The position numbers were made by a program. A stretch of DNA of 64,000 nucleotides from Escherichia coli (lineage in GTDB: Bacteria; Pseudomonadota; Gammaproteobacteria; Enterobacterales; Enterobacteriaceae), in assembly GCF_013315695.1 (NCBI RefSeq), contig NZ_CP054353.1; one strand, 5' to 3'. This document shows, piece after piece, positions 44,101 to 47,100 of this stretch. The first letter of the stretch is position 1. The number at the start of each line of letters is the position of its first letter.

Positions 44101-47100
44101 GTTGAAGTTGTACATGGTGCGGTTGAACCCTTCTAACGGGTCAGAACGCCCTTGCTGATCTGTACCGGAACTCGCACACCCCACCAGAAGCGTAGTTCCC
44201 AGAGCAAGCGCCGACAGGCGAAGCTTCATAAATGTCTCCCTGTTTTTTTATGGCTTATGCAGTTTGCCATCCATGACGGAACGATACCGTATCCGCCTGT
44301 TTAGGTGTGGGCGATTGTAACAGCACGTCAACTGATGTCCAGACGCCCTGATTTGCTGATTTGATCATAGCCTGGTAATCGCCGCCCTGTAGGCTACTTG
44401 ATTCTATAGAAACAGAAAAAGGCAAACGCGGCCTTTTCTACATTTTCAGAGTAACTCCCGCCAGTTGCGAGCAAAAAAGCCGCTACGCTTTAGCTATACG
44501 TGCTAATTCAAGAGAAGAGACCATGGACAACGACAAAATTGATCAACACAGCGACGAAATTGAAGTTGAGAGCGAAGAAAAAGAGCGCGGCAAAAAAATA
44601 GAAATAGATGAAGACCGACTCCCCTCCCGGGCGATGGCAATTCATGAGCATATCCGCCAGGATGGTGAAAAAGAGCTGGAACGCGACGCAATGGCGCTAC
44701 TGTGGTCAGCCATTGCGGCGGGTCTGTCGATGGGCGCTTCATTACTGGCAAAAGGGATATTTCATGTCGAACTGGAAGGTGTGCCGGGCAGCTTCTTGCT
44801 GGAGAATCTCGGTTATACCTTTGGTTTTATTATCGTCATTATGGCCCGCCAGCAATTATTTACCGAAAACACCGTGACTGCGGTACTACCCGTCATGCAA
44901 AAACCGACAATGAGCAACGTTGGCTTACTTATGCGGTTATGGGGCGTCGTGCTGCTGGGTAATATTCTCGGGACAGGTATTGCGGCGTGGGCATTTGAAT
45001 ATATGCCAATCTTCAATGAAGAAACTCGCGATGCATTTGTCAAAATCGGCATGGATGTGATGAAGAACACCCCCAGCGAGATGTTTGCCAACGCGATCAT
45101 TTCCGGCTGGCTGATCGCCACTATGGTATGGATGTTTCCTGCAGCGGGTGCGGCAAAGATTGTGGTGATTATATTGATGACCTGGCTTATTGCCCTGGGT
45201 GACACCACTCACATCGTTGTCGGTTCTGTTGAAATCCTCTATCTGGTGTTTAACGGTACGCTGCACTGGAGCGATTTCATCTGGCCCTTCGCACTACCTA
45301 CTTTAGCGGGGAACATCTGCGGCGGCACCTTTATCTTCGCGTTAATGAGTCATGCACAGATTCGTAACGACATGAGCAACAAGCGCAAAGCAGAAGCACG
45401 CCAAAAAGCAGAACGTGCGGAAAACATTAAGAAAAATGATAAAAACCCGGCATAAATGGCGAGGGTTTAAGCAATCGAGCGGCAGTGTACTTACCCCGCA
45501 GTCCATTAGCGGGTATACTCATGCCGCATTGTCCTCTTAGTTAAATGGATATAACGAGCCCCTCCTAAGGGCTAATTGCAGGTTCGATTCCTGCAGGGGA
45601 CACCATCCTTGTGTTTATCCCTAAAACCACATAAAAACCGTAAATTAAATTCGAACTAGCAGGCCGAATAAGGCACACCCGGAACTCGTGGTTTTATTCA
45701 TTATGAAGTAGTTTTTACCTGTTCTCTTAACCAAGTAATAAATGCCTCAATTTTTGGCCACTGCCTGCCCGGTAATGTGGTGATGTAATAATGCTGATGG
45801 CATTTCACCGTCATATCGCCAAACGGCGCGACGAGCTCACCACTGGCAAGCCTTTTTTGTACCAGGCGTTTTCTTCCCATCGCTACCCCAATATGATTCA
45901 TCGCAGCGATAACAGCTAAATCAGAACGATCAAAGCCAATCCCAGAAGATGTCGGCAAATTAACCGCATAATGTTGCGCCCAACTATGCCATTCATCCGT
46001 ACCGGAGTCGTTGCTCCATGCCTGTCTGTCATGGAGCAACGTACAGTGGCGCAGGTTAATTACCTGGTTGGTTAAAGCATGTCTTTGAGCGTATTCCGGG
46101 CTACATACAGGCAGGATTTCTTCATCCATCAGAAAGTGATGAGCCAATTGCGCTGACGGCGCATCATCAAAGTAGATCGCCAAATCGATTCCGGCACGTT
46201 GCAAATTGACATTGTCATTACCAGTAAGCACGGTGAGCGAAATAGACGGATAGCGGCGTGTAAAGTCACCTAATGCGGGCACCAACCAGCATTGGGCGAT
46301 AGAGGGCCGGGAATACAGCGTTAACGTTCCCGATAATTCCTGATTTTTGATATCAAGAATTTCCTGGTTCAGGGTATCCAGCGACGATTTTAGCGCCCAA
46401 TAAACGCGTTTCCCCTCGTGCGTTAATTCCACTTTGCGATGGGAACGAACAAACAACTGAATACCTAATTCTTCTTCCAGCTGATTGATACGGTGACTTA
46501 CCGCACTGGGGCTCAGCGACAATTCCTCTGCCGCAAGGGCGAAGGACTGATGCCTGGCAGCCACTTCAAAAGTATGCAGTTTTGATAGTTGCCAGCCGTT
46601 AAGCAGTCGATTTCTTATTTCACGAAGGGGTTCCATAATCACCTCATTTTTCTCTTAAGTGTAAAAAAATAGCGGCAAAATTTCAGCTGTAAGGTGAGCT
46701 AAAGTGAACCATATCTCAATTCATCTTCATTTTTAGATGTAAATCACTCCATTGATGCAATTTAGCTCATGTGAAAGGCAAATTTTATCGTTTGTCAGCC
46801 TGCGTTGTTTTTTTGTCCAATATCATCAGGTTAATCACAGGGGAAGGTGAGATATGCACTCTCAAATCTGGGTTGTGAGCACGCTGCTTATCAGCATCGT
46901 GTTAATTGTACTGACCATCGTGAAGTTCAAATTCCACCCGTTTCTGGCGCTGTTGCTGGCCAGCTTCTTCGTGGGAACGATGATGGGTATGGGACCACTG
47001 GATATGGTAAATGCTATTGAAAGTGGAATTGGCGGAACGCTGGGGTTCCTTGCTGCGGTTATCGGCCTGGGCACGATACTGGGAAAAATGATGGAAGTAT

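Follow-up and report, generated by a model that had tools for sequence, protein, structure and literature searches.

The window analysed here is the whole 64-kb stretch of Escherichia coli DNA. Its argW locus carries yfdC, argW, a short spacer and dsdC in this order, and the features are collected in Table 1. The argW gene is a cloverleaf tRNA with the anticodon CCU, identical to K-12 argW at 75 of 75 positions. It was the single tRNA found by ARAGORN within the whole 64-kb window, and the Rfam tRNA model matched at the same place. The identity of DsdC was verified by two full-length protein models: the NF007491 equivalog scored 601.6 bits against a cut-off of 316, and TIGR02036 scored 596 against a cut-off of 352. 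The mechanical open reading frame of dsdC covers 45701-46642 on the minus strand, reaching 46642 from a GTG start. The dsdX and dsdA genes are located immediately upstream of dsdC on the opposite strand and are divergent from it, and the dsdCXA set is complete at 45701-49537.

Table 1 Features of the argW locus, with positions counted from the first nucleotide of the window.
Feature	Position	Strand	Evidence
yfdC, formate/nitrite transporter family; conserved left flank of the argW locus	44523-45455	+	ORF; annotated as yfdC in MS 21-1 and MSB1_4I; weak NCBIfam FNT-family match
argW, tRNA-Arg(CCU), intact	45531-45605	+	ARAGORN (anticodon CCT) and Rfam RF00005, 63.4 bits
attB core CTGCAGGGGACACCAT, the 15 terminal nt of argW and 1 nt beyond it; the KplE1/HK620/Sf6/Kapi1 integrase module crosses over here	45591-45606		Exact match to the 16-nt core in PMC2951348
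argW-dsdC spacer, right arm of attB, 95 bp, no inserted DNA	45606-45700		tRNA end to dsdC stop codon
dsdC, LysR-type activator of dsdXA	45701-46636	-	NCBIfam NF007491; RefSeq annotation in identical strains
dsdX	46854-48191	+	NCBIfam DsdX, 939.8 bits, full length
dsdA	48209-49537	+	NCBIfam D-serine ammonia-lyase, 813 bits, full length

The distance between the tRNA 3' end and the dsdC stop codon, put at about 95 bp in the original prediction, was determined as exactly 95 bp (45606-45700). Nothing is annotated by RefSeq between tRNA-Arg and dsdC in the identical and near-identical strains. Phage genes nearby had been named as one of the findings that would speak against an empty site. In a collinear genome with 99.9% identity, no integrase or phage gene is annotated across the 64 kb, and no RDF gene adjoins the tRNA.

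The locus was compared with that of K-12 MG1655, in which the order is yfdC, argW, CPS-53, pawZ, a 95-bp spacer and dsdC. The placement of CPS-53 between argW and dsdC in K-12, on which the prediction relied, was verified. The element runs from intS to torI, is annotated with 10,215 bp and begins 15 nt before the tRNA end, and pawZ, which follows it, is a 15-nt argW fragment. The window spacer and the K-12 pawZ-dsdC spacer are of equal length and share 94 of 95 nucleotides, with one SNP at 45680. In a three-way alignment, the window tracked K-12 attL up to the core and K-12 attR from the core onwards, and the sole segment common to all three was CTGCAGGGGACACCAT. Similarly, the BLAST breakpoints overlap at the core: the K-12 left arm stops at window position 45606, and the right arm begins at 45591. 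The window is composed of the left arm of K-12 attL, the core and the right arm of K-12 attR, and is therefore an attB. This is also the outcome of the alignment to MG1655 around argW that had been proposed as a check: the window is the attB of the K-12 attL/attR pair. The two loci share the yfdC left flank and the right flank of dsdCXA and emrYK; however, the defective prophage of 10,215 bp and the 15-nt pawZ repeat of K-12 are both missing from the window, and the flanks are 2-4% divergent.

Both strands of the window were searched for a repeat of the tRNA 3' end. The terminal 25 nt of argW, with at most 3 mismatches allowed, and the terminal 15 nt, with at most 2, matched only the tRNA itself, and the core CTGCAGGGGACACCAT is present in one copy. 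The claim that no duplicated tRNA 3' end exists thus holds for full and partial copies in this mismatch-tolerant search. Among all 11- and 12-mers of the terminal 46 nt of argW, one 11-mer alone recurred, and it did so once, at 17645 (minus strand). It was rejected as a chance match, since about one such match is expected by our own estimate.

These data strongly support the conclusion that the argW attB of the window is unoccupied, with dsdC directly next to it and no element integrated, and our confidence in this conclusion is high. It is drawn because the core is single-copy, the vicinity contains neither an integrase nor a repeat, and each flank runs collinear with the outer arm of K-12 attL or attR. 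No observation spoke against it.

The core is known from integrase modules that use this tRNA. KplE1, which equals CPS-53, is bordered by the duplicated 16-nt core (PMC2951348). The Kapi1 att of 17 bp is the same as that of Sf6, HK620 and KplE1 except that it is one base longer (PMC8787464). Of the 17 nt in the Kapi1 att, 16 are shared with the window core; the 17th base is T in the host of that paper, whereas base 45607 of the window is C. The core at the tRNA-Arg(CCU) 3' end is identical to the attB of KplE1, HK620, Sf6 and Kapi1, and no structural difference was seen in the window except for base 45607. The non-lysogen KP7 of the Kapi1 study has the same yfdC-argW-dsdC context as the window, and when the 17-bp attB was deleted in KP7, integration at the argW locus was abolished (PMC8787464). 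A longer att type is present in phage records (Stx2a phages, VT2phi_272, phiv205-1 and others), in which 38-47 nt are 100% identical to window positions 45561-45607. Because of these matches, the longer type is also considered intact. The argW-integrating Stx2a phages and their relatives carry the same argW 3' end as the window, and none is integrated in the window. As judged by sequence, both att types, the 16-nt core and the longer one of 38-47 nt, are intact at argW here.

For the IntS-family tyrosine integrases (KplE1/CPS-53, HK620, Sf6 and Kapi1), the substrate of recombination is a core of 16-17 nt with identical copies in attP and in the tRNA 3' end. On integration the phage copy rebuilds the tRNA, and a partial tRNA repeat is left at the far end. 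By analogy with these systems, the argW site of the window is likely to be competent for integration.

The argW-dsdCXA region is the same hotspot that is described as a variable island, and the window represents the form with intact dsdCXA. The primary description of this variability is reportedly that of Moritz and Welch in 2006. The elements recorded at this recombination hotspot include the csc sucrose genes replacing dsdC and part of dsdX in EHEC, PAI-CFT073-argW, and the SHI-O/gtr elements (PMC4366372; PMC7545054). The csc substitution and PAI-CFT073-argW (table in PMC7545054) are both absent from the window.

The frequency of the empty state was measured in 5,426 complete E. coli genomes. 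All but one of them (5,425 of 5,426, ~100%) gave a match to the junction query, which was a yfdC-argW match among those listed. The spacer and the dsdC 3' end were kept in 2,383 of the 5,426 (44%), and about half of the genomes had no match at all to this segment. A K-12-type intS adjoins argW in 1,889 of the 5,426 (35%). The empty site, with the yfdC-side and dsdC-side flanks joined uninterrupted, was found in 911 of the 5,426 (17%, about one in six), and E. coli B and BL21 derivatives are among these genomes. Occupants other than the K-12 type were also observed. The argW island of ATCC 25922 encodes the UpaE autotransporter, and the island of strain 201609 carries a different tyrosine recombinase together with restriction and helicase genes; the window contains neither island. 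In the occupied genomes examined, the similarity to the window ends at the core, at 45606 in K-12, 45606 in strain 201609 and 45607 in ATCC 25922. The empty argW is a minority state, yet a frequent and familiar one. The site is an already known, indeed well-known, kind of feature, and the finding is correct but ordinary.

The exact 33-nt junction (the tRNA end and the first 8 nt of the spacer), which is a very strict pattern, was also searched for in 100,044 species-representative genomes, and one match was found. It lies on NZ_JAHZMP010000156.1, a contig of 486 bp with 0.8x coverage in the assembly of Terrisporobacter mayombei DSM 6539. This contig with the argW-spacer junction is almost certainly E. 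coli contamination of a public assembly.

The placement of the strain was further examined by comparison with its closest relatives. The segment 40500-47500 of the window (7 kb, including an IS1) is 100% identical to NZ_LR898874.1 and NZ_OZ547117.1, of which the former is strain MSB1_4I from a human rectal swab in Australia. MS 21-1 is 99.9% identical to the whole window and collinear with it except for the IS1. The identity between MG1655 and the window is 96.1-97.9% across housekeeping genes, corresponding to 2-4% divergence. Two features of the K-12 lineage were looked for, CPS-53 at argW and near-identity to MG1655, and the window showed neither. The empty site had been proposed to help place the strain outside K-12. 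The placement itself stands, but the empty site marks it weakly, and the divergence is far stronger evidence. The marker is weak because 17% of complete genomes, including B and BL21, share the empty state, and because 35% of genomes, many of them non-K-12, have a K-12-type intS at argW. The strain is accordingly assigned to a position outside K-12 by its divergence rather than by the empty site.

The history of the site was considered next to its present state. The five genomes whose junction is 100% identical are all empty, and so is the group below them at ~99.5%. This suggests that the state was inherited in the clade and did not arise from a recent event in one isolate, and the empty site of the window is thus probably an inheritance of the lineage rather than the product of a recent excision. 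The description of the site as a native empty attachment site is correct for the empty attB; the word native, however, is inseparable from clean excision. A site that was never occupied and a site that was cleanly excised are indistinguishable from the site alone, because precise Int/RDF excision regenerates an identical attB.

Former occupancy of the site, emptied by precise integrase/RDF excision in a cured lineage, is rather unlikely but deserves to be weighed seriously. KplE1 is defective yet excisable via IntS and the RDF TorI (PMC2951348; PMC3509656); its excision still occurs in vivo (PMC2951348), and excision in vitro yields attP and attB (PMC2951348; PMC3509656). The traffic at the hotspot is also heavy, with an intS-type element in at least 35% of genomes and other islands in others. 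The window bears no scar, although none would be expected, and the emptiness of both the identical-junction and the ~99.5% relatives means that any such excision would be old and clade-wide.

It is also conceivable, though improbable, that the empty argW is actively kept free in the clade, for example by defence (a Septu pair is encoded nearby) or by surface-receptor incompatibility. If this were true, the emptiness would reflect more than a lack of visits, and the clade would be a natural control for studying the limits on lysogeny at a hotspot in heavy use.

We consider it very improbable that a functional RNA or a small non-canonical element is concealed in the spacer. Most of the spacer is enclosed by an 8-bp inverted repeat, AAAACCAC...GTGGTTTT. 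However, the fold of 45606-45700 showed no significant structure when compared with shuffled sequences (z = -0.41), the search of 45300-46900 against Rfam families returned only the tRNA, and consensus scans of the same region detected no promoter-like or terminator-like site in the spacer. The same 95 bp adjoins dsdC in K-12 beyond the prophage, which indicates an ordinary chromosomal flank.

That the empty junction is an assembly artefact, in which a prophage was collapsed or dropped, has a negligible probability: repeat-flanked elements can mis-assemble in drafts and contig breaks at the argW locus have been reported (PMC8787464), with nothing specific to this case, whereas 911 complete genomes share the identical junction, two complete, independent assemblies show 100% identity over 7 kb, and the spacer equals the K-12 attR flank base for base, one SNP apart.

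With the argW attB empty, the strain is without any argW-borne prophage or island, and thus without O-antigen-modifying gtr phages, Stx2a phages, the csc substitution or the UpaE island at this site. The intact dsdCXA predicts D-serine utilisation, a trait that has been linked to extraintestinal and gut fitness (PMC4366372). The argW site could also be used as a clean landing pad by phages or vectors that integrate at argW. By itself the finding matters little, and as a strain marker it excludes K-12 only.

Several other features were observed in the window. The IS1 mentioned above is 768 bp long, belongs to the IS1A family by annotation in the identical genomes, and is located at 41544-42311. 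It is missing from K-12. Its 9-bp target duplication, TTGGTATCG, is found at 41535-41543 and 42312-42320. The element interrupts a hypothetical gene (415 aa) between fadL and mlaA. This gene, in the yfdF position at 41267-43294 excluding the IS1, has a counterpart in MS 21-1 that encodes a protein of 415 aa without a Pfam match, and when this protein was compared with K-12 yfdF (352 aa), short parts alone could be aligned. The fadL-mlaA slot is variable and uncharacterised, and its gene is inactivated by the IS1 in the window. The IS1 at 41544 is a useful sub-clade marker because it is absent in the 99.9%-identical MS 21-1 but shared by MSB1_4I and NZ_OZ547117.1. The 7-kb query with the IS1 matched at least 40 places each in NZ_LR898874.1 and NZ_OZ547117.1 versus 19 in MS 21-1, and an unusually high IS1 copy number in the MSB1_4I/NZ_OZ547117.1 sub-clade is suggested.

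A two-gene insertion, which is not present in K-12, was found at 25531-27532 on the plus strand between smrB and the yfc fimbrial operon. Its products are an AAA ATPase of 452 aa and a protein of 219 aa, which were scored by PADLOC as PtuA with 558 bits and PtuB with 316 bits. The PtuA/PtuB pair indicates a predicted Septu anti-phage defence system. Next to this insertion, the yfcO-yfcV chaperone-usher fimbrial operon (~27568-34054) has ~70-73% DNA identity to K-12, whereas the flanking genes have 96-98%. Judged from these identities, yfcO-yfcV in the window is a divergent allele of the operon. The yfc usher is intact in the annotation of MS 21-1, and yfcU is a pseudogene in K-12.
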